Assembly (NCBI GenBank): GCA_947589405.1
Contig: CANQBT010000001.1
Coordinates: forward strand, 1 to 47,788
Source: an uncultured Clostridia bacterium
GTDB lineage: Bacteria > Bacillota > Clostridia > Lachnospirales > CAG-274
Reading direction: 5' to 3'
DNA: 47,788 nt
Below are positions 2,587 through 44,396 of the stretch, piece by piece. The notes under the pieces were generated by a model. The model made no database searches and was not told the origin of the DNA. It saw nothing but the letters and a program-made list of their open reading frames with translations. Both the position numbers and the translations under genes were made by a program. Numbering within the stretch: the first letter of the stretch is position 1; each line of letters starts with the position of its first letter.

Positions 2587-3825
2587 TTAGCCTTCCATTC
2601 TTATTGTATTGAGTATACCGTTTATGCCATCGCAGTTTAATAACTCCTCAAGCTTCATATCGATCTCTCTTTCGCTTGCTTTGTCTGTGACAAAGGCAAA
2701 TTCATCATATGCGTTTTCAAGCTCCAGTATATTATCTGTGCCGAATACTCTCTTCACACAGGATATTGCCTTGTCCTTATTGCTGTATTCCACTCTCACA
2801 AGCTTACTTACGACAACGTCATCTATGTCCATAAGCTCTTGTTTATCCTCTGACCATTTTATGCCAAGATTGATATTTTTGTGCCTTACGGCGTCCACAA
2901 TGTCGCTTACGACAGCGCTTGCCGTAGGCAGCTTGCCTGCGCCTCTGCCGTAAAACATAACGTCTCCCAGCATATTGCCCTTCAGAAGAATTGCGTTGAA
3001 TACATCATTTACCATACTGAGAGGATTGCTGCCGGATACTACTCCGGGAGCAACTCTTGCCCATACTCTGCCGTTTTCAAATCCTGCCTTTCCCAAAAGC
3101 TTGATCTTGCCTCCAAGCTTTTGGGCATAGAGCATATCTGTTGTGGAAATATTGGTTATTCCCTCTGTATATATATCCTCATATCTTACTGTCTTTTCCG
3201 TAGCAAGAGAAGCAAGTATGGCTATTTTCCTACAGGCGTCATGTCCCTCCACATCGGCGGCGGGATTTCTCTCTGCATAGCCCTTTTCCTGAGCGTCCTT
3301 TAAAACCTCGTCATAATCTATGCCCTCAGTACCCATTTTGGTAAGCATATAGTTGGTGGTACCGTTGAGTATTCCCGTAACAGCTTCTATCTTGTCTGAA
3401 GTAATGCTTCTGTTTATAGGCCTTATTATAGGGATACCTCCGCCTACGCTTGCTTCAAAGAGAAAATTCACATTGTTATCCTTAGCTATCCTCATAAGCT
3501 CGGCGCCGTGAGCCGCCACAAGCTCCTTGTTTGAAGTACATACGCTCTTGCCGTTTAAAAGAGCGCTCTTTACAAAGGAATAGGCAGGGTCGACTCCTCC
3601 CATTACCTCTACGACAAGCTCTACCTCACTATCGTTTAGAATATCGTCGTAATTATGAGTAATTATCTCCTGCACAGGATCTCCGGGAAAATCCCTGAGA
3701 TCAAGTACGTACTTGATATTTACAGGCTGTTCCGCCTTTGACTCAATAAGCTCTTTATTTGAGCGCATGACCTCTATGACCCCTGAGCCAACAGTACCGT
3801 AGCCTAAAACTGCTATTACCGCCAT
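2587..3825 (-). CDS. hom: Homoserine dehydrogenase
   Basis: NAD-binding motif VLGYGTVGSG, a catalytic-domain region, and a C-terminal ACT-like domain. The ORF opens with GTG at 3834 (GTGA overlap with the upstream stop). ATG at 3825 has a better-placed GGGAG RBS, so the exact start is uncertain by 9 nt. Confidence 0.88.
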   Translation of the reverse strand: MAVIAVLGYGTVGSGVIEVMRSNKELIESKAEQPVNIKYVLDLRDFPGDPVQEIITHNYDDILNDSEVELVVEVMGGVDPAYSFVKSALLNGKSVCTSNKELVAAHGAELMRIAKDNNVNFLFEASVGGGIPIIRPINRSITSDKIEAVTGILNGTTNYMLTKMGTEGIDYDEVLKDAQEKGYAERNPAADVEGHDACRKIAILASLATEKTVRYEDIYTEGITNISTTDMLYAQKLGGKIKLLGKAGFENGRVWARVAPGVVSGSNPLSMVNDVFNAILLKGNMLGDVMFYGRGAGKLPTASAVVSDIVDAVRHKNINLGIKWSEDKQELMDIDDVVVSKLVRVEYSNKDKAISCVKRVFGTDNILELENAYDEFAFVTDKASEREIDMKLEELLNCDGINGILNTIRMEG

Positions 3826-4274: not shown

Positions 4275-4596
4275 ATCTGTTCACCCTCTGCATACAGTTG
4301 TATTCCATAGATGGAAATATATCATATATCTCATTAAAAATCAAGGGATTTTTTAAAAGTTTTTGTTAATGTTGAAGGGGCGTGTGTGAATAAAAAATGA
4401 ACACGCAATATACTATTGGGAAAAATCTCAATAAAAAAGCTATTTATATTTATAACCTTTGGTGCTTACTTCCCTGTTTTTTGCATTTCCATAGACTAAG
4501 GGGGCTGTCGATATGACAACCCCCTATGCACAAAGCCTGTGCTGCACCCCATCATCTATATCACGGGCATAAAAGTTCCGCCCGAAATATAGCCAT

Positions 4597-6864
4597 TTAT
4601 TCCATTGCTATGCTAACTATGTTTTCAAAATCATTTACATCGACAACATCTGTTCTTTCTGAGCCGAAGCAATATATATGACCGTTATACTTGAAATAGT
4701 GTACGTCTTTATTATTGCTTTCGTCTATAGTTCCTATTCGCTTAAAGCCCTCGTCCATGTTGATGTCATAGGCATAGCTTCCGTTAAATGTAACCTCTCC
4801 CGATGCCATATCCTTAATGACAACAGGAAGTACGAACCTGTTTCTCTCTCTGTCAAATTCAAAGTAATCGGAATTTTCAAAAAGAGGAGTATCTATATTT
4901 TCCTTTCCCAGCTCCTCGCTGTACAATCTTCGGGCATTGTCCATACCCTCTATGCTGTATACGTTCATTTTCAATATACTTTCGCCATTGTCAATGGTTA
5001 GTATATGGCTTTCGTCATAGGGATATATAAGTATATTGCCTGTTGAAAGCTTAAGTATGCCCTGACCTTCTGGATTGACAGGATTTGAGCTGTCTATAAG
5101 ATACATAGCCTGTCCTCTTTCGGCAGGTATGAGGAATATCTTGTTTTCCGTAAATATGGCAGAACGTATTGCAGCATTATTGGCTATCCTGTTTGCCTCG
5201 CCGCAAAGCTCCATATTGTTGTTGAGAATATATATATTTGTTATATTCTTATCCGTGCCCTTTTCCTTGTATTCCGTAGCAATGCTGAAATATCCTGAAT
5301 TTTCATTCATAGAGTTTCTGTCCAGCACATAGCCCTTCACATTTCCTCCGCCTTTGGATACTATATTGCCTTCGGAAAGGGACATTCTATATATAAATGT
5401 ATTTTCGGTATTTTCGCCTGAATCAAAGGCTGTATATCTGCTCTTGGCAACATATAGATTATTCTCGGAGAGATATACGTTGCTGCCGCCGCACAGATAT
5501 GCCTTTACATTGGCAGCCGCAGACATATCGGCTATATTTAAGCTTGATATGAGCGTATAGTCGTTTGTGCCTGTTTCGGGGAAATACTGTATATTTTCAA
5601 AGCCAAGAGTATTTATCTGACCGCCCATAGCCGAATCCCTGTAGGAAGGCGGATAGAAATGGCCTTCTCTTTCATTGTCGAAAACCGAAAGCTGTGAAAG
5701 AATATATACGTAATCCCCATGCTTTACGGTATCTATAAGCGTTCCGTCTACATCAAATTCTCTTTCCTTTACTGCATTGGCTCTGTCGCCTATGTTATAT
5801 ACATATACTGCCGAACAGACGCCTTCTCTGTCATCGCTTTGGGTATCCTCCTCCGCCGTTTCTGCCGATGAGGCGGCTTCTGTAGAAGCTTCCGTAGTAG
5901 TTTCGGAAGAAACGGTTTCCGTTGGCTTCTGAGATGTATCTCCTCCGAACCTTCTTGTGCCTGCCGCAACAAGGATATTGTCCTGCAGATAGAGTCTTGA
6001 TATGGTAAAGTCGTTTTCCATATCTATCTTATTTATTATTTTGTTTGACAGATGATCCGTTATATATATTACGTTATCTCTGCCAAAGTATATATATTTT
6101 TCATCATTTGCAATGAGTCCGCTTTTCTTGTCCGCAATAAGCTTGACAACGGCGTCCTCTTCAGAGCTCCTGCCTCCCACAACGGTGCCGACACGTCTTA
6201 AAAAGCCGTTACGGCCCAAAGTGTCCGTAAGCTCCTTCAGATTGCCTTCATTGGCAACATACGGAAGCTCCGTTACCTGTGCCTTAAGGCTGTTTATGAA
6301 ATCGTCGCTTTCCTCCTGCGTGAACGCCTTTTTATCCCCCGATATTATAACAAGGTCATTATAATAATGTATTTCCTTGTCAAAGGCCTCCGCAAAAACA
6401 TCAAGAGGTATATACATAGTATTTCTTCTTATAAAAATACTGTTGTTATACTCCAGATCTCTTTCCGAAGAGCTGCTTACAATATCGGCTTTTTTCCTAT
6501 CCAGCACAAGAGCCTCGTTATTCAGCCTGATAGCGGCGCTGCCTGCACCTGCGTCATATGTTACGCTGGCGCCGTAAGCGGATTTAAAGAAGGAAAGAGG
6601 AACATATGCCACTTGGTTTTCAATAAGCGGTACAAAAGAAACATTGTTCTTATCTATGAGCATCTGTTTTTTATTAGCCATTATAACAGGGCTTTCCTTA
6701 TACAGGACCACAGCTCTGTCAAGTCTGTCCTCAGCAGCTACCTCTCCCGATGTAGTGGGAGAAGATACCACATCGTTTTTCCCTCCAAAGACCTGAAGGA
6801 AAAGCACAAACGCCAATATAAGAAAATAAACCATAAGTATACCAAGAACCATTTTGTTCTTCAT
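4597..6864 (-). CDS. Membrane-anchored protein with a copper-amine-oxidase-N-like stalk domain and a C-terminal beta-propeller domain
   Basis: N-terminal TM helix. Stalk-type motif (YVPLSFFKSAYGASVTYDAGAGSAAIRL). T/S/E/A-rich linker. Long C-terminal region resembling secreted beta-propeller-domain proteins of Firmicutes. The track ORF starts at GTG 6873; ATG 6864 has a GGGTGA RBS and is preferred. Confidence 0.72.
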   Translation of the reverse strand: MKNKMVLGILMVYFLILAFVLFLQVFGGKNDVVSSPTTSGEVAAEDRLDRAVVLYKESPVIMANKKQMLIDKNNVSFVPLIENQVAYVPLSFFKSAYGASVTYDAGAGSAAIRLNNEALVLDRKKADIVSSSSERDLEYNNSIFIRRNTMYIPLDVFAEAFDKEIHYYNDLVIISGDKKAFTQEESDDFINSLKAQVTELPYVANEGNLKELTDTLGRNGFLRRVGTVVGGRSSEEDAVVKLIADKKSGLIANDEKYIYFGRDNVIYITDHLSNKIINKIDMENDFTISRLYLQDNILVAAGTRRFGGDTSQKPTETVSSETTTEASTEAASSAETAEEDTQSDDREGVCSAVYVYNIGDRANAVKEREFDVDGTLIDTVKHGDYVYILSQLSVFDNEREGHFYPPSYRDSAMGGQINTLGFENIQYFPETGTNDYTLISSLNIADMSAAANVKAYLCGGSNVYLSENNLYVAKSRYTAFDSGENTENTFIYRMSLSEGNIVSKGGGNVKGYVLDRNSMNENSGYFSIATEYKEKGTDKNITNIYILNNNMELCGEANRIANNAAIRSAIFTENKIFLIPAERGQAMYLIDSSNPVNPEGQGILKLSTGNILIYPYDESHILTIDNGESILKMNVYSIEGMDNARRLYSEELGKENIDTPLFENSDYFEFDRERNRFVLPVVIKDMASGEVTFNGSYAYDINMDEGFKRIGTIDESNNKDVHYFKYNGHIYCFGSERTDVVDVNDFENIVSIAME

Positions 6865-6880
6865 ATCCTTCACCCTTTTA

Positions 6881-11575: not shown

Positions 11576-12493
11576 ATGGCCGGCAGCACAAAATCAAAGG
11601 TAGAGGTCGTAATAGGCGGTAAAATATACAAACTTGCAGGAGATGAAAACCCTGATTATATTCAGAATGTAGCCAGGTATCTGGACAATAAGCTCAATGA
11701 TCTTAAGAGAGCCGCTGCTCCAAGCATAATATATGACGAAAGCTTTCCTATTATATTGGCGCTTAATATAGCAGACGATCTTTTTAAAGAAAGAGAAAAC
11801 AAGGAGGTCGTTGTCACAGAGACAGGGGAGGATCTGAGCAGCAGACTGAGAGAGCTTACCGAAATAAAGAACCAGCTTGCCATAAGGACTAACGACTACA
11901 AGCTTCTTCTGGATCAGTTTGAGAGCAAAAGCAGCGAGGTAGACGGACTCAAGGCAGAGATAATAAGCAAGGACGACAAAATGGAAGCCCTTAACAAAAA
12001 GCTTGAGGACGCAAAGACGGCTCTTGAGGAAGCCAATAAAAAGATAGATGAAAAATCCGTATATATAACCAATCTGAACGCTAAAATATCAGACAAGAAT
12101 CAGGAGCTGAACAGCCTTAGCAAAAAGCTTGCCGAGAAAAATTCGGCTCTTAACGATCTTAACAAGAAATCAGCTGACAGGAATATAAAGCTCAATACGG
12201 TAAATAAGGAAAGAGATGACCTTGCCATAAAGCTTAAATCCGCCAACAGCAGCATAAAGACTCTTGAAGGAAATGCCGTAAAGGCAGCTGAAGCAATTAC
12301 TCAGCTTACAGCCCAAAGAGATGATTACAAAGCAAAATACGAGCTTCTGAACGAACAGTTTGAGGTATATAAGAAGAGCCTTGAGGTAAGCAATGAAACT
12401 CAGCTTAAGGCAGCCTTTGCCAAAATAAAGGCGGAAAACCTAGAGCTTATGAGAAAAGCGGAAGCATTGGAAGCTCAGCTCAGCAAGAAATAA
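11576..12493 (+). CDS. zapA: ZapA-domain cell-division protein with a long coiled-coil extension
   Basis: N-terminal ~90 aa match the ZapA pattern (VEVVIGGKIYKLAGDENPDYIQNVARYLDNKL). The remaining ~210 aa are K/E/L/N-rich heptads. AAGGAGG RBS. Confidence 0.8.
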   Translation: MAGSTKSKVEVVIGGKIYKLAGDENPDYIQNVARYLDNKLNDLKRAAAPSIIYDESFPIILALNIADDLFKERENKEVVVTETGEDLSSRLRELTEIKNQLAIRTNDYKLLLDQFESKSSEVDGLKAEIISKDDKMEALNKKLEDAKTALEEANKKIDEKSVYITNLNAKISDKNQELNSLSKKLAEKNSALNDLNKKSADRNIKLNTVNKERDDLAIKLKSANSSIKTLEGNAVKAAEAITQLTAQRDDYKAKYELLNEQFEVYKKSLEVSNETQLKAAFAKIKAENLELMRKAEALEAQLSKK

Positions 12494-18016: not shown

Positions 18017-18664
18017 TTATTCTGCTTCTGTAGTTGTTTCTGTAGCTTCTTCGTCAGCTTCTGTTGTTTCCTCAGCTGCTTCTGTAGCTTCTTCATCAGC
18101 TTCGGTCACATTCTCTGTAGCTTCCTCAGTAACGGCTTCAGTCGTTGCCTCAGCAGTAGTTTCCTCTGTCTTTGCGGCGTTTACGGTAACAGTTCTTGTT
18201 GCTGCGTCCCACTCTACCTCAAAGCCAAAGTATTCTGAAAGGAATCTGACGGGAACCATAGTTCTGCTGTTTATGATAGTTGCAGGAGTGTCAATGTCTA
18301 CAGTATATTCTGTATCTCCGTCGTTATAAACAAGCTTAGGCTCGCCTATAGTCATGGAAGCTGTAAGACCGTCCTTTTCCATAACAACTGTCTTTGTATC
18401 TGCCTTCCAGTCAACGTCACAGCCAAGAGCCTCTGCAATTACTCTGAAAGGTACCATAGTTCTGTCGTTTACTATAACGGCAGGCTGGTCGCTCTCTACA
18501 GCGGCGCCTGATACTATAACTGTAACGGCTGAACCTGATGCTACGGGAGCTGCTGCAACAAGAGCAGGAGCATCTGCTTCTCCGTCACCTGCTGCATGAA
18601 CAGGTACCATTATTGCTGCCATTGTCATTGCCATAGCAAGTAACATACATAATTTCTTTTTCAT
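18017..18664 (-). CDS. Secreted protein with two copper-amine-oxidase-N-like stalk domains and an acidic T/E/A repeat tail
   Basis: Start moved to ATG 18664 (MKKKLCMLLAMAMT signal peptide, GGAGGAAAC RBS). There are two stalk-type motifs, VNDRTMVPFRVIAEALGCDVDW and INSRTMVPVRFLSEYFGFEVEW. The C-terminal ~50 aa are TEEAT-type repeats. Confidence 0.75.
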   Translation of the reverse strand: MKKKLCMLLAMAMTMAAIMVPVHAAGDGEADAPALVAAAPVASGSAVTVIVSGAAVESDQPAVIVNDRTMVPFRVIAEALGCDVDWKADTKTVVMEKDGLTASMTIGEPKLVYNDGDTEYTVDIDTPATIINSRTMVPVRFLSEYFGFEVEWDAATRTVTVNAAKTEETTAEATTEAVTEEATENVTEADEEATEAAEETTEADEEATETTTEAE

Positions 18665-18711
18665 TTTTGTTTCCTCCAATTTATAAAATTTATGACCTGC
18701 CATAAAGGCAG

Positions 18712-18745
18712 GCAAACACAAAGGATGGGCATAATACCCATCCTT
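18712..18745 (-). terminator. Terminator-like hairpin after yqeY
   Basis: AAGGATGGG (18721-18729) pairs with CCCATCCTT (18737-18745), 12 nt after the yqeY stop. On the minus strand it is followed by TGTGTTTG. Confidence 0.5.
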
Positions 18746-23630: not shown

Positions 23631-23830
23631 TTGGCTTTTGCAAAGCAAAAGTGCCGGGACGCCTTATGTTTATGCTCCTCAAATGAAAAACCGATATTTA
23701 TCACTAGATACGCATACGAAAGCCGTCCCTTAGCCTTTTAAGGCGTAAGGGAAGGTGTCCGCCCAATCATTTCTTTACAATAACATTACATTTGCATTGG
23801 GCGGACGGAAGGGTCGACCTTCCCCATAAC
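23631..23830 (+). repeat. Structured intergenic repeat, diverged copy C
   Basis: Shares module order and the right-end sequence TTTGCAT(T)GGGC(G/T)GAC(G/T)GAAGGGTCGA with the copies at 33370-33765 and 42981-43257. Has hairpins GTCCGCCCAAT (23757-23767) with ATTGGGCGGAC (23796-23806), and GGAAGG-GTCGA-CCTTCC. Confidence 0.6.
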
Positions 23831-31411: not shown

Positions 31412-33169
31412 ATGAATAAAAAAATGAAAATTTGTATCTTTTTGTGTGTGTTCACACTTATTGCGGCAGTACCGGTATATGTAGGAGCACGAACGGTAAA
31501 GGGTGTTACAAGAAGCTATGAACCTACCGAGACCACAACGGAAGCAGAAGCGACCACCGTTACCGAAAAGGAAAGCGAGACCACTACTCTTAACAGAGTA
31601 GTATCTGTTTCAAAAAAGATAAAGGGAACTACTACCACTACCGAAGCTGCTTCAATGACCACAACTGCCGAAGCTGCCACAGAAACTACTACAATAAATT
31701 TAAGTCTTTACGAAGGCTCTGTGGAAATATCAACAATAAGTATACCTGACTATCCAAGCGACCCTGTTGATAAAAACGGCAATCCTCTTACAGGCATAGA
31801 CCTTAAGGCATACAATGCGGTAAAAAAGACATTTAAGGACAAATGGACTGCCATAACCTCTCCCAAGATCAGCGAGGAGACTCTTTACAACGATGCGGAC
31901 CATACCATAAAGGCAAAAACCTTTGCCTTTGACGATGGGGATATATATACCATAAAAAGATATACCTTCGGCGCCAATGCCGATGAAAGGCTTACGGACA
32001 GTCTTACCATAGCGGGAAATACCGTTGAGATAAGATATATGAACGACGATGGCTGGTATATGTCCGGCAATCCTGAAAATACCGATAAAAAGACTATGTT
32101 TATAGATACAGACAAGGTTTCTGTTATGATAAGCATTCCCGCAGTATATACAAACAATTTCCAGTACAATACCCTTCAGTATCACCCCGATATGGAGGAA
32201 AAGGCTGAAATAACCATAAACCCTGACAACACCGTTACAATAAGCTGGTCTTTCCCTCAGAACACAGGCCTTATAGGAGAAATATGGTACCTCTGTTCCG
32301 AAAACAAGCTTGCCGACTGGAACAACGGCAATCATTTTGCTGCCCTTGCTCAGGATCTGGCTGTAGAGAGAAGATTTTCATGGGACGGTTATTATTTCCC
32401 TATCCCTGCCAACTATATACCAAACGGCGATCATATGCTCTACAGACAGCCTTCTAACTATACAGGCGCAAGCTTTACGTCCTACGGTGATTTTCCGGCT
32501 GCATTCAAGATGGGCTATGTTATGACATATACATGTATGCTCAATCAGAATGAAAAGGGCTATTGGGCTACCATGCCTAAGTCAGGCTGGCTTTCAGAGG
32601 ACTTCAATATAGGAGGAGGCTTCTATGACACAAGGTTCAATACCGACTTTGCCGAAAACCTTCTTTCTGCCTATAAGAGATACAATAACGACGAGTTCTT
32701 GTTTGCTGCCTGCAAATATGCGGAATACTTTATACAGCACGCCAATACGGAAAGCTATACTACAAAGAACGGCGGCCTTCTTGTTCAGGACTACGGCTAT
32801 GACTATGACCATTTGGATACTCATGTTTCACTTAATCACCAGCTGGCGGAGCTTGACTATCTTTACAAGCTGTATCAGATAACAAGAGAGGATTCCTACA
32901 GATTGCTTGCAGACCAGATGCTTATAGCAATAAATGACACAAAGGATCAATGGGTGCTTGCAAACAACAATCTGAACTATGCCCTCTACTATGTGGCAGG
33001 TACCAATCCTATGGTAGATTATCCATATCTTACCTATAACGATCTGTTTGAAACGCAGGAGCTGTACACAGCCATATATGGCAAGGAAAATGAGACCGTT
33101 AAGTACCTTATGGACTGTAAGCTTCAATGGATGACCGAAAACAGCATAACCGGCTACAGAACAAAATAA
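31412..33169 (+). CDS. Hypothetical secreted protein (585 aa) with T/E/A-rich linkers
   Basis: Signal peptide/TM (MKICIFLCVFTLIAAVPVYVGA), two Thr-rich low-complexity stretches, and a ~480-aa globular region rich in aromatic residues. No family recognised by eye. Confidence 0.7.
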   Translation: MNKKMKICIFLCVFTLIAAVPVYVGARTVKGVTRSYEPTETTTEAEATTVTEKESETTTLNRVVSVSKKIKGTTTTTEAASMTTTAEAATETTTINLSLYEGSVEISTISIPDYPSDPVDKNGNPLTGIDLKAYNAVKKTFKDKWTAITSPKISEETLYNDADHTIKAKTFAFDDGDIYTIKRYTFGANADERLTDSLTIAGNTVEIRYMNDDGWYMSGNPENTDKKTMFIDTDKVSVMISIPAVYTNNFQYNTLQYHPDMEEKAEITINPDNTVTISWSFPQNTGLIGEIWYLCSENKLADWNNGNHFAALAQDLAVERRFSWDGYYFPIPANYIPNGDHMLYRQPSNYTGASFTSYGDFPAAFKMGYVMTYTCMLNQNEKGYWATMPKSGWLSEDFNIGGGFYDTRFNTDFAENLLSAYKRYNNDEFLFAACKYAEYFIQHANTESYTTKNGGLLVQDYGYDYDHLDTHVSLNHQLAELDYLYKLYQITREDSYRLLADQMLIAINDTKDQWVLANNNLNYALYYVAGTNPMVDYPYLTYNDLFETQELYTAIYGKENETVKYLMDCKLQWMTENSITGYRTK

Positions 33170-33313: not shown

Positions 33314-33369
33314 GTGGTGTGAGAGTTGTTTTTATTTTTGCAAGTATCAACATTATTTTTGCTTTAGAA

Positions 33370-33765
33370 CGACCCTTCCACCATTTCAAACAATGTTTGA
33401 AAGGTTCAGCACTTTTGCTTTGCAAAAGCAAGCCTACGGCTTGGCGGATAATTCTTCCGCTGCAATGTCCCCCTCCCCTCCGACGCCCTACGGGCTATCA
33501 GCACTTTCGGCAAGCCGAAAGCCGACCTGACGGTCGTCCGATAAATCTTTCGTTGCAACGGGGAGGCTAGAGGTGGGGAGGAAAGGGAAGCCTTAAGTTT
33601 ATGTTCTTTAAATACTTTTATAATGTTAAAAAGCTAGTATTTATAACTAACTAAAAAATTATGGGGAACTACAAACTAGGCTCCCCTTGGAGCTAGGGGA
33701 GCTGTCAGCCCAACCAAGAATTACAAGTTGTGAACGGATTTGCATGGGCTGACTGAAGGGTCGAC
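33370..33765 (+). repeat. Structured intergenic repeat, long copy A
   Basis: Ends CGACCCTTC (33370-33378) and GAAGGGTCG (33755-33763) are inverted complements. Internal hairpins and C-rich/G-rich tracts are shared with copy B. Its last 59 nt are 56/59 identical to copy B by my manual alignment. Confidence 0.7.
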
Positions 33766-33792: not shown

Positions 33793-34209
33793 TTATAGAT
33801 TACTCTTGATTTTTTCAATTATTTCTGTATACTCAGTATCAGTAAGATATTTAGGAGGCTCCACATTCATTTCAAATGTGCCGCCAAAGCCGTAGCCGTC
33901 CTTCTGCTTCGGTACGATATGCACGTGAAGATGAGGAAGCGTATCGCTGTACATTCCATAATTTACTTTGGCAGGGTTTACGCTTTTCATTATCGCCCTT
34001 CCTACAGTCTGCATATCCTCTATAAACAGAGCGGAATCCTCTTTTGAAAGCTCTGTAAAGTCCACATTGTGCTCCTTATAGGCGATAACGCAGCGTCCGT
34101 AATAGGTCTGTTCTCTGAAAAGATAGAGCTTTGTGACCTTAAGGTCTGCAATGTAGATCATGAGGGAATCTAATTTTTCCTTATTTTTGCAATATAAACA
34201 ATTTTCCAT
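33793..34209 (-). CDS. HIT-family (histidine triad) protein
   Basis: Histidine triad HLHVHIVP. The track ORF opens at TTG 34224. ATG 34209 (MENCLYCKNKEK) sits 8 nt after a GGAGG and is preferred. Confidence 0.85.
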   Translation of the reverse strand: MENCLYCKNKEKLDSLMIYIADLKVTKLYLFREQTYYGRCVIAYKEHNVDFTELSKEDSALFIEDMQTVGRAIMKSVNPAKVNYGMYSDTLPHLHVHIVPKQKDGYGFGGTFEMNVEPPKYLTDTEYTEIIEKIKSNL

Positions 34210-34321
34210 TTCATTTACCTCCAAAATATGTTATACTTTAATTATATAATGACATTATGCTACTGTCAATTTTATTTTTGACGATATTTTGCAAATTATA
34301 TTGAAAAAAGGAGAGATGCAT

Positions 34322-35806: not shown

Positions 35807-36790
35807 ATGAAGATCAGACGATTCCTGAGCTGTACCGTATTCATACTTGCATTCGCATCTGTTATGAACGTATATGCAAAGGATATAAAGCTGCTTATAG
35901 AGGGACATAATATAGAAACGGATACACCTCCCGTTATAATGTATGACAGAGTGATGCTGCCTGTAAGGACCATATTTGAAGGGGTAGGAGCCGAGCTTGC
36001 CTGGGACGGTGAAAGCAAGACTCTTACCGGGACAAAGGGCAGTCATATTGTCGTAATGACAGTAGGCAAGGAGGAATATACCATTGACGGTGAAGAGCAT
36101 ACTATGAGCGTACCTCCCTGCATACTTAACGACAGAGTATTTGCTTCTGCAAGATACGTAGCGGAAGCCTTCGGCTATACCGTAGACTGGGATAAGGATC
36201 AGCTTATTGCGGAAATAAAAGCCGAAAAGCCTCAGGAGGAAACAACAAAGGTCAAAGACGAACAGAAGGATGAGCACAAGGACGAACAGAAGGATGAGCA
36301 TAAGGACGAACAAAAGACCGAAAAGGCTGAACCAAGTACGGAAACTACCACAAAAGCCATTACTCCTGTGGCAGCTGTGACTCCTTCTCTTTACAACAAG
36401 GTAAAAGAGGATCTGAATATTACCTTTGACGGATATACTCTTGGTACGGCAGAGCATATAAACAGATTTAAAATAGCTACCGTCAATTATTACAAAAACA
36501 GCTGGAGCGAAATGGCAAAGACCGATATAGACAAAACCTTCGTCAGCTACAGCAAGACCCTTTACGACAGAATAATAAGCACAGCCAAGAGAATAGATTA
36601 TGTATATACAAGGGAAAAATATCTCGGAAAAAGAGAGATAAGCGACGACTGCCGTGAAAATAAGGCAATATTGAAGGATTATATAGACCAATATTTTGCC
36701 TGCGAAACTCTTGAGGAATGCAAGGATATAAACAACAAGCTGCGTGAATTCTACACAGGTATAAAAACAAAATATCCCGAATATGAATAA
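35807..36790 (+). CDS. Secreted copper-amine-oxidase-N-like stalk-domain protein with a KDEQKDEH repeat and an unknown C-terminal domain
   Basis: Signal peptide. Stalk motifs ([44 protein letters not shown]). Charged repeat linker. GGAGGAG RBS 12 nt after the cls stop. Confidence 0.75.
36254..36316 (+). repeat. 2.6 tandem copies of a 24-nt repeat inside the stalk-domain gene
   Basis: AAAGACGAACAGAAGGATGAGCAC (36254-36277), AAGGACGAACAGAAGGATGAGCAT (36278-36301), and a partial third copy to 36316. Encodes KDEQKDEH reiterations. Confidence 0.8.
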
Positions 36791-41141: not shown

Positions 41142-42893
41142 ATGAATTCAGGCTTAAGAAAAATTATAGGCGCAGCTGCGGCCCTGACACTTCTTGTCAG
41201 CTCATTTGCCGTATATGCAGCAGACAGTACCGATACTGCCAAAGCTGAGATATATGGCTCCGTACAGCAGGTAGTCGGCTTCTCCGACGCTACCGGCTAT
41301 ACTACCGAGACCTATTACACAGGGGACAAGAAGAACAACAAATGCGATGCAAACGTAAGCATAAAAAATGCAGCAGAGCAGGTTCCGCTTAAAGGAGCAA
41401 AGGTAAACATCAAAAACAGCGATTCTACTATTGACAAAACGATAGCCGTAAAGGCAGACGGTACTTTCAGTTATTCGGGTGAAGCCAAAAAGCCTCTTGC
41501 AGACGGTGTGTATACGATAACGGCAGCTGCCGAAAACGGCACTCCCATAGGCGGCGCTCAGACTGTAACAATATCAGGTGGCAAAGCCGACAAAGGCGCA
41601 AGCTTCGTACAGGACGACAGACTTGTGTACACCTTCCAGACGGATATAAAGGACTTTAAGGACGAGATACTCGTTATGAAGGACGGCAAAGAGGCATTCA
41701 GACTGCTGGATAAGTCCTATCACTACCAGACTCAGCCTGCCGGCTCTCCAAGCGATATTGCAAGACGTGCCAGCGTTATACACAGAGTAAAGATGCCTGT
41801 AGGCACATATTCCTTCTTTGTTGTAAAGCCCGGTACCGATATTTCATCAAAGAGATATACTATCTCCGCTTCAGACACCTCAGGCATAAGCTCTATCGAC
41901 ATTACTCAAAGAGGAGCAAGCATGCTCTATCTTGTGCCAAAGGTAAATGACTCGGTTATGGAGGCCGCTAAGGCTGCCGCTGATAAAATAGGCAACGTTA
42001 GAAGGGGTATATATACCTTCACTCCTTCACCTTCATCTAAAAATGCAACTGTAAATCACTCTCTTGGCGGAGTTCCCACACAGGACTATGTTGCAGACGA
42101 CATCGGCGCTTACGGAATACTTGGCGAAGATGCGCAATATAAGAATTCCATTATGGTCAACGGAGACAACTATGTTGTGTTTAAGATAAAGGCAGGCGAT
42201 GAATTTGTTACCAAAATAAATGTAACAAAGCAGTCCTACATACTTGCCGATGTAAACTATACAAGAAAGGTAGAGGGCAGAGATCAGATAGCTATAGACA
42301 GCCGTTTCGGAAATGTTACTCTTACTCTTGGCGAGGGTACCTACGTGCTGTATACTACTGCCGAGAACGAAGGATATGTTAATTCAATAGAATTCAATTA
42401 TTCCTCACCGTTTAATGTTATACAAAGCGTTCCCGCTTCAAAGACAGCATCTGACGGAGCAAAAATGGTAGTAGGCTCCTTTGATACCACAAACAATATA
42501 GAGGATTACTCCAAGTTTGCTATAATGATCTCCTCTAACAGAGATGCTCTTGACTATTCAAGCATAAACAATGAACATAATTCAGAACCTATTCCCGGAG
42601 ATAACACAAGCGTTACATCGGAAGGCGGTAAAATATATGTTCTCAATGCAAAATACGATACAATGGGAGCAAGCACCGCTACTGTAATAATAGAAGAGAC
42701 CGAAACTCTTTTCAAAAAGGTCGTAGATGCTTCAGGCGCAACAATTGCCGAAACAATAGACGATGACTTCTATTACTGTTCCGCAAGAATAAACAATGTA
42801 AGCGGTACATTATATGCCGTAGGCGCAGCTAAAAGAGCAGATGAGCCCGACGGCAAATGGATGGTACAGACCACTCCTTTTGTAATTCAGTAA
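41142..42893 (+). CDS. Hypothetical secreted protein (583 aa)
   Basis: Signal peptide (AAAALTLLVSSFAVYAADS). The N-terminal ~100 aa resemble a small beta-sandwich (LKGAKVNIKNSDSTIDKTIAVKADGTFSYSG). The rest is unrecognised. GGGAGG RBS, 44 nt after potD. Confidence 0.7.
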   Translation: MNSGLRKIIGAAAALTLLVSSFAVYAADSTDTAKAEIYGSVQQVVGFSDATGYTTETYYTGDKKNNKCDANVSIKNAAEQVPLKGAKVNIKNSDSTIDKTIAVKADGTFSYSGEAKKPLADGVYTITAAAENGTPIGGAQTVTISGGKADKGASFVQDDRLVYTFQTDIKDFKDEILVMKDGKEAFRLLDKSYHYQTQPAGSPSDIARRASVIHRVKMPVGTYSFFVVKPGTDISSKRYTISASDTSGISSIDITQRGASMLYLVPKVNDSVMEAAKAAADKIGNVRRGIYTFTPSPSSKNATVNHSLGGVPTQDYVADDIGAYGILGEDAQYKNSIMVNGDNYVVFKIKAGDEFVTKINVTKQSYILADVNYTRKVEGRDQIAIDSRFGNVTLTLGEGTYVLYTTAENEGYVNSIEFNYSSPFNVIQSVPASKTASDGAKMVVGSFDTTNNIEDYSKFAIMISSNRDALDYSSINNEHNSEPIPGDNTSVTSEGGKIYVLNAKYDTMGASTATVIIEETETLFKKVVDASGATIAETIDDDFYYCSARINNVSGTLYAVGAAKRADEPDGKWMVQTTPFVIQ

Positions 42894-42901
42894 TATCTAT
42901 A

Positions 42902-42933
42902 CTGCCTGCAAAGTATTTGCAGGCAGTTTTTTT
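42902..42933 (+). terminator. Strong rho-independent terminator of the cls-pot gene string
   Basis: CTGCCTGCAAA (42902-42912) pairs perfectly with TTTGCAGGCAG (42916-42926), followed by T7. Confidence 0.88.
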
Positions 42934-42980
42934 GTTGGCGAAGGATTTTTTCCTGTGACCCGGTCATGGGGAATTTTTAA

Positions 42981-43257
42981 ATCGACCCTTCCACCATTTC
43001 AAACAATAAAATTGTTTGAAATGGTCCCCCTCCCCTCCGACGCCCTGTGGGCTAGGGGAGGCTAAAGGTGGGAGGATAAGGGACGCCTTAAGATAAGGCA
43101 CCCCAAATGCCTTAATAATGTTGAAAAATTTGTATTCATAACAAACTAAAAAATTATGGAGAACTACTGTCTAGGCTCCCCATTCGTAAGGGGAGCTCAG
43201 CCCAACCAAGAATTGCAAGTTATGAACAGATTTGCATGGGCTGACTGAAGGGTCGAT
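42981..43257 (+). repeat. Structured intergenic repeat, compact copy B
   Basis: Perfect 11-nt inverted termini ATCGACCCTTC (42981-42991) and GAAGGGTCGAT (43247-43257). Perfect 15-bp hairpin ACCATTTCAAACAAT-aaa-ATTGTTTGAAATGGT. Same C-rich/G-rich tracts and right-arm hairpins as copy A. Confidence 0.72.
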
Positions 43258-43445
43258 ACTAATACAAACACCAAACTTCCCTCTCTCCGTCCATTCGGCA
43301 GCATAATATTCCATAACAGCGGCAATATTGCTCCCTCTCCGGATCCATTTTGCTAAAAATTTCAAATTTATGTTGCTATATATTCGTTTTTGGGTTAAAA
43401 TAAACTTGGTATATTATAAAATCCTGTTGGAGAAAGGAGACTATT

Positions 43446-44396
43446 ATGACAGTAGATTTAATAGTTCCCTGCTACAATGAATCGGCTGTACTGAATATGT
43501 TTTATAACGAAGCAAGCAGAGTAGCCGACAGCATTAAAAATTACGATTTCAATTTTATATTTGTAAATGACGGAAGCAAGGATAACACTCTTGAAATAAT
43601 GAAGGAGCTTGCCGAAAAGGATAAGAGAGTAAAGTATATATCCTTTTCCCGCAACTTTGGCAAGGAATCCGCTATGTATGCCGGACTTAAAAATTCCTCA
43701 GGGGATTATACGGTAATACTTGACGCAGACCTTCAGCACCCTCCCGCTCTTATACCTGAAATGCTTAAGGCTATGGAGGAAGGCTATGACTGCTGCGCTA
43801 CAAACAGAGCCACAAGAGACGGAGATCCTTTCGTAAGGACATTTTTCACAAGGCGGTTCTACAGCTTTATAAACAAGATCTCTGAGGTGAATATGCCCGA
43901 CGGCGCAGGAGATTTCAGAATGATGAACCGCAAAATGGTTGAGGCGGTAATAGCTCTCAGCGAGGTACAGCGCTTTAGCAAGGGTATATTCAGCTGGGTA
44001 GGCTTTAATACAAAGTGGATAAGCTTCAACAATGTGGAAAGAGCCGCAGGTCAGACAAAATGGAGCTTTTGGGGACTTCTGAAATATGCTGCCGCAGGCA
44101 TTACGGCATTCTCCACATTTCCTCTTAAGGTAGCCATATATCTGGGAAGTCTTATATCCGTTTCTTCATTTGTATATCTTATATACATCGTTATAAAGAC
44201 ACTTGTACACGGCAAGGACCTTCCCGGCTATGCTTCCATAATAGCAATACTTCTGTTTCTTGGCGGCTGCATAATGCTGTGCTGCGGAATAATGGGAGAA
44301 TATATAGCCAAGATATATATAGAGGTCAAGAACAGACCTGTCTATATAATAGGCGAAACTAATATAGACAAGCCTGAGCACGACTATGGGAGGTAA
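43446..44396 (+). CDS. GT2-family polyprenyl-phosphate glycosyltransferase (GtrB/CsbB-like)
   Basis: N-terminus IVPCYNE...VNDGSKDNT, motif DADLQHPP, and two C-terminal TM helices. AAAGGAG RBS. Confidence 0.87.
   Translation: MTVDLIVPCYNESAVLNMFYNEASRVADSIKNYDFNFIFVNDGSKDNTLEIMKELAEKDKRVKYISFSRNFGKESAMYAGLKNSSGDYTVILDADLQHPPALIPEMLKAMEEGYDCCATNRATRDGDPFVRTFFTRRFYSFINKISEVNMPDGAGDFRMMNRKMVEAVIALSEVQRFSKGIFSWVGFNTKWISFNNVERAAGQTKWSFWGLLKYAAAGITAFSTFPLKVAIYLGSLISVSSFVYLIYIVIKTLVHGKDLPGYASIIAILLFLGGCIMLCCGIMGEYIAKIYIEVKNRPVYIIGETNIDKPEHDYGR

Follow-up and report, generated by a model that had tools for sequence, protein, structure and literature searches.

A 277-nt stretch of intergenic DNA (copy B, positions 42981-43257) on a contig from an uncultured Clostridia bacterium raises the question of what such a conspicuously structured sequence is doing between two plus-strand genes, the second of which is the first gene of a GT2-GtrA-YfhO operon. 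The stretch of DNA that we analysed, 47,788 nt in full, is referred to here as the window. We conclude that copy B is probably a composite interspersed repeat that is neither coding nor autonomous, namely a foldback MITE of BOX-like modular construction that lacks the internal module, M, found in other copies. The family to which it belongs is a previously undescribed, lineage-restricted group of palindrome-rich repeats located after gene ends in a few uncultured gut Clostridia. A search of the literature turned up no such repeats for uncultured gut Clostridia.

Sequence features of copy B

The gene upstream of copy B encodes a 583-aa protein (41142-42893) and is ended by two terminator-like hairpins that together span 42901-42973. 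Copy B begins 8 nt later, and 188 nt separate its end from the GT2 start codon at 43446. The original prediction described 11-nt inverted termini, a 15-bp hairpin, C-rich and G-rich tracts, and right-arm hairpins, and each of these is present where it had been placed (Table 1). The two termini, ATCGACCCTTC and GAAGGGTCGAT, are 100% complementary. The tip sequence TCGACCCTTC, with no more than one mismatch allowed, occurs 6 times in the window compared with 1.26 times expected; five of the six occurrences are element ends. The loop of the right-arm hairpin carries a conserved TTTGCAT motif, and the spacing from GCCCAA to GGGC in this arm is a constant 32 nt in the five copies compared. The minimum free energy fold of copy B takes in nearly all of the hairpins and tracts listed in Table 1. 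The sequence features of copy B are far beyond chance.

The 30-codon ORF within copy B exists as predicted, and its homologue in copy A is indeed interrupted by a stop, a TAG after 11 codons in the same frame. The counterpart in the L010 copy has 6 codons. We considered the ORF as a candidate small protein or toxin and judged it to be spurious, given that it is unconserved in copy A, L010, and L005.

Table 1. Coordinates of the features of copy B, its context, and related copies and modules. Positions are those of the window unless another locus is named.
Feature	Position	Strand	Description
Left tip (A)TCGACCCTTC	42981-42991		Family-wide terminal sequence; inverted partner of 43247-43257
Left hairpin hp1	42993-43007 / 43011-43025		Perfect 15-bp stem ACCATTTCAAACAAT/ATTGTTTGAAATGGT, 3-nt loop
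hp1 region	42993-43025		Type I left half, common to copies A and B and one reverse-oriented L007 copy
C-rich tract CCCCCTCCCCTCC	43026-43038		Pairs with the G-rich tracts at 43055-43061 and 43068-43076
G-rich tracts	43055-43061; 43068-43076		GGGGAGG; GGTGGGAGG
Small hairpin	within 43026-43104		GCCCT/GGGC
Inner-left palindrome GGGACGCCTTAAGATAAGGCACCCC	43080-43104		GCCTTA/TAAGGC hairpin
Asymmetric AT-rich centre	43105-43174		..TTAATAATGTTGAAAAATT..ACAAACTAAAAAAT.., from alignment of copies
Inner-right palindrome	43175-43196		GCTCCCC-loop-GGGGAGC; pairs with inner-left palindrome in symmetric copies
Right arm	43197-43257		Hairpin TCAGCCCA/TGGGCTGA (43197-43244), then tip GAAGGGTCGA(T)
ATG ORF	43156-43248	+	30 codons; without a Shine-Dalgarno sequence
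Terminator-like hairpins upstream	42901-42927; 42949-42973	+	Two, from terminator scan
Promoter-like site TTGCTA-17-TAAAAT	43373-43401	+	Only such site near the GT2 operon; outside the element
Copy A	33369-33764		Full length; copy B architecture plus two M modules (33406-33467, 33498-33559)
Copy C	~23634-23817		Consists of the right half (inner palindrome, remnant of the centre, and right arm), with an inverted M fragment before it
Further copies	L005; L010 3916-4176; L012 ~4296-4361; L088 2403-2577		L012 copy partial
Nest of element pieces	L007 2016-3046		Pieces in both orientations
M modules in L007	2320-2595; 2679-2747; 2953-3012; 2141-2286		Those at 2679-2747 and 2953-3012 inverted
T modules	L005 4206-4320; L010 4177-4292, 14766-14851; L088 11961-12052, 2577-2620		Terminator-like hairpin plus spacer

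Other copies in the window

Using blastn and an nhmmer profile of the family, we found exactly three copies in the window, namely A, B, and the partial copy C. Copies A and B are 82.5% identical over 206 nt and 93-100% identical over shorter blocks by blastn, and they differ mainly by two additional 62-nt blocks in A. The M modules of copy A are inserted at two points of the stretch that is homologous to 43026-43104 of copy B. Both A and C are located between convergent genes, which in the case of A are 31412-33169 on the plus strand and a HIT gene on the minus strand (33793-34224). The arm stem of copy C carries compensatory changes (GTCCGCCCAAT/ATTGGGCGGAC). Because the window copies are only ~82-94% identical to one another, they do not demonstrate recent transposition.

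Copy C terminates (23807-23823) in a near-palindrome, GGAAGGGTCGACCTTCC, which is followed by CCATAACTT. Judged by its sequence, this terminus resembles a right end linked, by way of TCGA, with a left end of type I that has decayed (TCGACCCTTCCACCATTTC), in what would be a head-to-tail or circle-junction-like arrangement.

The window is otherwise ordinary core chromosome, carrying recA, cinA, ftsW, a PBP gene, feoAB, liv-type and other ABC transporters, and thrA/hom. No transposase or recombinase gene was found within its 47.8 kb, and exact look-ups of the window proteins returned no record. Copies A and B are each preceded by a gene for a protein of ~584 aa (31412-33169 and 41142-42893, respectively). 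Neither protein has a Pfam match, and the two are mutually unrelated. For this reason we rejected segmental duplication, in which a gene would have been copied together with the element as its tail, as the origin of the pair. The 41142-42893 protein has only three homologs in a database of 5.8 billion proteins, indicating that it is lineage-specific. Three proteins in the window have a Cu_amine_oxidN1 domain (4597-6873, 18017-18721, and 35807-36790). In the second of these, encoded on the minus strand, degenerate 21-nt tandem repeats (CTGCTTCTGTAGCTTCTTC...; 18022-18129) occupy the 3' part of the gene and encode a low-complexity C-terminal tail rich in Glu, Ala, and Thr.

Distribution of the family

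A scan of GTDB, with one genome per species and a pattern for the right end, yielded two true matches, both in uncultured Clostridia MAGs from rabbit gut (L005 and L007), along with 7 chance matches in GC-rich genomes. Homologs of the GT2 protein (89-91% identity) and of the 583-aa protein encoded upstream of copy B (72-80% identity) gave access to loci from three or four related species. At least 7 copies are present in two relatives, where they occupy unrelated intergenic sites in both orientations, and the genomes carrying the family have, as sampled, ~2-5 copies per 50 kb. These dispersed copies, in the window and in relatives, confirm the repeat family that had originally been proposed. 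The accompanying claim that all copies share one orientation holds within the window; in the relatives, both orientations are present.

As far as sampled, the family is confined to the window organism and to two uncultured species of gut Clostridia related to it. The 21 kb surrounding GT2 in a more distant relative (82% identical) contain no copy, nor do two short contigs from a relative with 86% identity. A first pattern scan of JGI metagenomes gave 0 matches; a scan with a pattern for the centre gave 71, of which the nhmmer family profile confirmed none beyond one weak AT-rich match. Searches of phages and plasmids by blastn and of IMG/VR viral contigs by two pattern scans gave no match. A protein search aimed at other copies, using the spurious ORF as translated from copy A, also found nothing.

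One Logan contig (L089) begins inside an element copy, at its positions 1-115, and two contigs of a third relative (L092 and L093) both break off within a GTGTCGATAAAGTCGACAC palindrome, 64 nt past the 582-aa gene. These contig ends suggest that repeats break short-read assemblies at these points. An element that may break assemblies, as where L089 starts inside a copy, could also be used as a strain marker.

Architecture of the element

The unit is bounded by the inverted tips TCGACCCTTC...GAAGGGTCGA, and copies range from 260 to 400 nt. In the symmetric copies, those of L005 and L010, both ends run on into an inverted arm of ~62 bp, the left arm being an inverted copy of the right arm, loop included. 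Comparison of ten arms, read from the outside in, shows a 10-bp stem, then a loop of ~31-32 nt in which a GCAAA motif is conserved, and finally the return strand. Across the ten arms, pairing in the stem amounts to 95.8% with a single G-U cell, and 6 of the 10 stem pairs have been altered on both sides; these values were matched in 0 of 500 shuffles. Such two-sided changes that keep the pairing, together with the lack of conservation of the ORF, uphold the earlier suggestion that it is structure and not a peptide that is maintained.

Inside the arms lies a second pair of palindromes of ~20 nt (CTCCCCTT...AAGGGGAG), and there is an asymmetric AT-rich centre, ..TTAATAATGTTGAAAAATT..ACTAACTAAAAAAT.., which is conserved in A, B, L005, L010, and L088a. 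The left halves of copies A and B are asymmetric and have no arm hairpin. This type I left half consists of the tip, a short variable hairpin, and the C-rich tract paired to the G-rich tracts.

Two arms from different species and unrelated loci, L005 4323-4397 (E5_L) and L010 3917-3991 (L010_R), are ~95% identical over 66 nt, loop included, and one of their three differences is a compensatory stem pair. Orthologous intergenic DNA of these two species is otherwise unalignable. Two further candidate features were discarded. An apparent inverted centre in L005 was considered as an internal inverton and rejected, since the whole core is reversed and has two similar arms, and an A/C-rich tail past the right end of B, L005, and L088b was dropped because the blastn similarity was not significant.

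M and T modules

M is an independent module of 62-64 nt with three small hairpins and the consensus TCAGCACTTT..AAAGC..G.C.GATAA.TCTT.CG.TGCAA. Its hairpins keep their pairing through compensatory changes. Its number varies from 0 in copy B to two in copy A; it occurs once, inverted, in E7 and at least three times in tandem in L007 (2402-2590). The position of M differs slightly between copy A and the L007 copy. ARAGORN gave a negative result for a tRNA-like nature of the M modules. By analogy, M behaves like the boxB of BOX elements.

A second recurrent sequence, T, consists of a terminator-like hairpin (GCTG..GTTATGA...TCATAA..CAGC) and a spacer of ~45 nt. Its occurrences are 75-80% identical and follow unrelated genes. 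T is found directly to the left of the core three times and once alone, where it is followed by GACCCTT; no copy of T was found in the window. From this placement, T may be a third module type or a preferred target.

Folding without strand bias

The original prediction raised the possibility of a structured non-coding RNA or a cis-regulatory leader on the plus strand. The predicted fold is indeed very stable, with z = -8.9 relative to shuffled controls, its stems are conserved through compensatory changes, and the three window copies share the orientation of the plus-strand gene upstream of each. The minus strand, however, folds as well or better: its z for copy B is -8.5, and in seven copies fold energies and G-U counts are similar for the two strands, neither being consistently ahead. 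There are almost no G-U pairs, and they are not biased toward either strand. Furthermore, both orientations are represented among the arms, the M modules, and the whole cores, and between L005 and L010 the whole core is opposite in orientation relative to a homologous flank of ~100 nt. Strand-neutral folds, inverted arms, M modules that face either way, and the reversal of the core between L005 and L010 thus point to a constraint at the level of DNA, in double-stranded or hairpin form, and not at that of a single RNA strand.

Searches for known RNAs were likewise negative. Rfam returned no relevant match in the window or in the relatives' loci, either at gathering thresholds or at a permissive E<=10, and ARAGORN found no tRNA-like structure in the element. 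Within the element and just upstream of it there is no promoter-like site; in particular, a promoter scan found none in the AT-rich centre (43105-43174). The element is also absent at orthologous operons, as described below, and is thus set apart from an Rfam-type RNA or riboswitch on three counts: the lack of a match, its absence there, and the equal folding of its two strands. Structure at the RNA level is therefore disfavored, and we regard an RNA or leader as the least probable of the readings weighed here.

Copy B and the GT2-GtrA-YfhO operon

It had also been suggested that copy B, by virtue of its position, might serve as a cis-regulatory element or 5' leader of the cell-envelope glycosylation operon. 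Four relatives have a GT2 protein 82-91% identical to that of the window (L010/11, L012-14, L015/16, and L094), and in all four the element is absent upstream of GT2. In the three closest relatives the operon is intact and its upstream neighbor is different in each case (DUF4956, a dockerin protein, or secE/nusG). What is conserved in these closest relatives is the last ~90-100 nt before the start codon (~43347-43445 in the window), at 80-85% identity, and this proximal stretch bears the promoter-like site listed in Table 1. The element is missing both upstream of orthologous GT2 operons and downstream of the 583-aa gene ortholog in L090; therefore, copy B is not a conserved leader of the operon, and the suggested role is not supported. 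We infer that copy B has no dedicated role in GT2-GtrA-YfhO control and that the operon's own conserved promoter region lies downstream of the element. This result guards against annotating copy B as a riboswitch or as the leader of an operon for cell-envelope glycosylation.

Presence and absence at orthologous sites

Comparison of orthologous sites between relatives revealed presence/absence differences at the species level, in L012 and L090 and at the GT2 orthologs. The ortholog of the 583-aa gene in L090 is followed by 53 nt with a plain terminator and no counterpart of copy B. The site of copy A, just 3' of the HIT gene, is likewise empty in L090 (79 nt with a plain terminator); in L088, the site is occupied by a copy whose left half is different and whose right arm is replaced by a T hairpin. 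L010 has a copy between MatE and DUF3793 that the orthologous spacer of L012, 209 nt long, lacks; the exact empty-site junction in L012 is not definable because the flanks are too diverged. Since intergenic DNA is in general too diverged between these species for exact empty-site alignment, we infer insertion at these loci.

In L088, the ortholog of the 583-aa gene is followed (11808-12330) by a minus-strand tRNA-Leu(CAA), a T module, and a palindromic unit that has diverged strongly. This unit (TTGACCCTTCC...), which the family profile missed, has two GGGAGACC..GGTCTCCC hairpins around an AT-rich centre.

Ends and target sites

The ends of the element are sharp: 12 of 14 start exactly at TCGACCC, and the flanks outside are unrelated. 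Across all 14 ends, the flanks share nothing but a preference for A at position -1 and AT-richness. TCGA bounds both ends, and there is no direct repeat outside it. Because TCGA is itself palindromic, it can be read either as the tip of the inverted repeat or as a duplicated 4-bp target. The earlier observation that no target-site duplication flanks the copies thus stands insofar as there is no direct repeat beyond TCGA, and falls short insofar as the TCGA at both ends could itself be the duplication. As an argument against a MITE it is weak, given that inverted ends, dispersal, presence/absence, and both orientations are all seen.

The same ends could be viewed as crossover sites. If the TCGACCCTTC/GAAGGGTCGA sites were recognized by a master site-specific recombinase, the family would be one of invertons in which flipping alters read-through or promoter activity, and copy B could make the surface-glycosylation operon phase-variable. 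The size of the element and its 10-11-bp inverted repeats fit known invertons, a surface-glycan operon such as that downstream of copy B is a typical phase-variable target, and joined ends would form the palindrome GAAGGGTCGACCCTTC, of which the end of copy C is a near-copy. The reversal of the core between L005 and L010 relative to the homologous flank would fit as well; these two loci, however, are not orthologous, so insertion could explain the difference in orientation equally well. Copies A and B contain no promoter-like site, A and C are between convergent genes, and there is no recombinase gene nearby. Moreover, orthologous GT2 operons are without the element yet retain their own promoter region, and the orientation of L088a is identical in two assemblies. 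Given this evidence, we find an inverton family highly improbable.

A possible host function at gene ends

The main rival to a mobile repeat is a host function of the REP/BIME kind, namely termination or stabilization at gene ends, and structured RNAs and inverton families are less likely. Here the arms, the inner palindromes, M, and the T-like hairpins would be kept by selection, acting as bidirectional terminators, as stabilizers of mRNA 3' ends, or as nucleoid or gyrase sites. The units would have spread through a domesticated hairpin-recognizing enzyme or through recombination rather than by means of a classical transposase. Consistent with this, the copies are intergenic and lie mostly just past gene 3' ends or terminators, several of them between convergent genes; the inner-right hairpin of copy A is the only terminator-like site for the minus-strand HIT gene; and the terminator-like T hairpin and its spacer recur beside cores and alone. 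The stems covary, and arm identity is 95% between species in which the rest of the intergenic DNA cannot be aligned. As judged from the sequences, the combination of stem compensation with this arm identity could reflect host-level selection for function instead of selfish spread. Most of the hairpins, however, are without T-tracts, and a plain terminator without any element is found at many of the window's gene ends. The units are also far larger and more complex than REPs, with no conserved GTAG-type REP head, and no RAYT-like gene was seen. On balance, we consider such a host-maintained system unlikely.

A more elaborate combination would have the core be a cassette that a dedicated recombinase moves or flips at the junction GAAGGGTCGACCCTTC, with crossover in TCGA, while arms, M, and T form a three-tier, BIME-like host system of orientation-dependent terminators or insulators and copy B gates read-through into the glycosylation operon. 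This is improbable; if true, it would mean family-wide phase variation in an uncultured Clostridia lineage.

A composite mobile repeat as the preferred explanation

Copy B is thus best explained, in our view, as a non-autonomous composite repeat. The family is dispersed and modular, has sharp inverted ends, and occurs in both orientations; it differs in presence between species and has neither coding capacity nor strand bias. The two arms would be putative binding sites, as double-stranded DNA or extruded hairpins, for a transposase or recombinase whose gene is located elsewhere in the genome. Acting in trans, this enzyme would place the unit, facing either way, in AT-rich DNA between genes just past terminators, either at a TCGA or in a manner that creates one. 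Inserted copies would be passive, their contribution being at most that of additional hairpins or terminators where genes end. Neither the window nor the gene tables and ORFs scanned for the related loci examined yielded a cognate transposase or recombinase.

With respect to class, the element is small (260-400 nt, where MITEs are below about 500 bp) and non-coding, its sole ORF being unconserved. It has terminal inverted repeats, 11 nt in copy B and arms of ~62 bp in L005 and L010, and its dispersed copies vary in presence between related genomes, all as expected of a MITE. No autonomous element or transposase with the same ends was found in the loci examined or in phages, plasmids, and viral contigs. 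As in BOX-type repeats, terminal modules surround a variable internal module that is capable of tandem repetition. The units exceed those of REPs, BIMEs, and REPINs in size and have an inverted tip of 10 nt, and the loci examined yielded no Y1-transposase gene. PATEs have subterminal hairpins of the same orientation at both ends on one strand and lack terminal inverted repeats; the ends and arms of the present element are true inverted repeats of each other, which separates it from PATEs derived from IS200/IS605.

The result is chiefly one of annotation, in that a striking structured sequence between genes is accounted for by a lineage-specific interspersed repeat. Among uncultured gut Clostridia, the family clearly exemplifies modular, nested palindromic repeats, and its stem compensation and near-identical cross-species arms raise a modest question about the enzyme that recognizes them.

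Comparison with known systems

Invertible promoters, such as those controlled by Mpi in Bacteroides fragilis and RecV in Clostridioides difficile, resemble the Clostridia element in being 150-400 bp in length with short inverted repeats, in having several copies per genome, and in that one copy lies upstream of a surface-glycan operon. Unlike them, the Clostridia element has no internal promoter signal, no nearby recombinase, and no observed orientation polymorphism at a single locus, and its copies lie between convergent genes and are unconserved at orthologous loci.

The REP/BIME and REPIN sequences of Enterobacteria and Pseudomonas are likewise mosaics of palindromic units in alternating orientations at gene 3' ends, with maintained stems and possible roles as terminators or stabilizers. 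REPs, however, are 20-40 nt in length and have a conserved 5' tetranucleotide and a linked RAYT gene, neither of which is a feature of the Clostridia element, whereas an inverted tip of 10 nt delimits the Clostridia units, which also contain an asymmetric centre.

With bacterial MITEs such as Correia/NEMIS of Neisseria, RUP, and Nezha, the element shares small size, a non-coding and intergenic nature, multiple copies, terminal inverted repeats, strong foldback, and presence/absence between related genomes. It differs from them in that the only candidate for a target duplication is the ambiguous palindromic TCGA at both ends, in that no matching IS element or transposase was found, and in its modular interior and old, diverged copies (~82%).

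The BOX elements of Streptococcus pneumoniae and S. suis are composite repeats of the form boxA-boxB(n)-boxC (Croucher et al. 2011, PMC3049150). In pneumococcal BOX, the terminal modules pair, the internal module varies in copy number and folds independently, and the mobilizing enzyme and target duplication are unclear (PMC3049150). The Clostridia element is larger (260-400 nt), with hairpin-containing arms of ~62 bp, inner palindromes, and a conserved AT-rich centre, and its hosts belong to an unrelated lineage of uncultured Clostridia, so that sequence homology to boxA, boxB, or boxC would not be expected; no hint of such homology was noticed. The likeness, drawn from the description of BOX, is one of build. 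That likeness is nonetheless extensive: both are highly base-paired, composite, non-coding intergenic repeats in which terminal modules pair around an internal module that is absent, single, or in tandem, copies of both cluster and nest within each other, and in both the mobilizing enzyme is uncertain.
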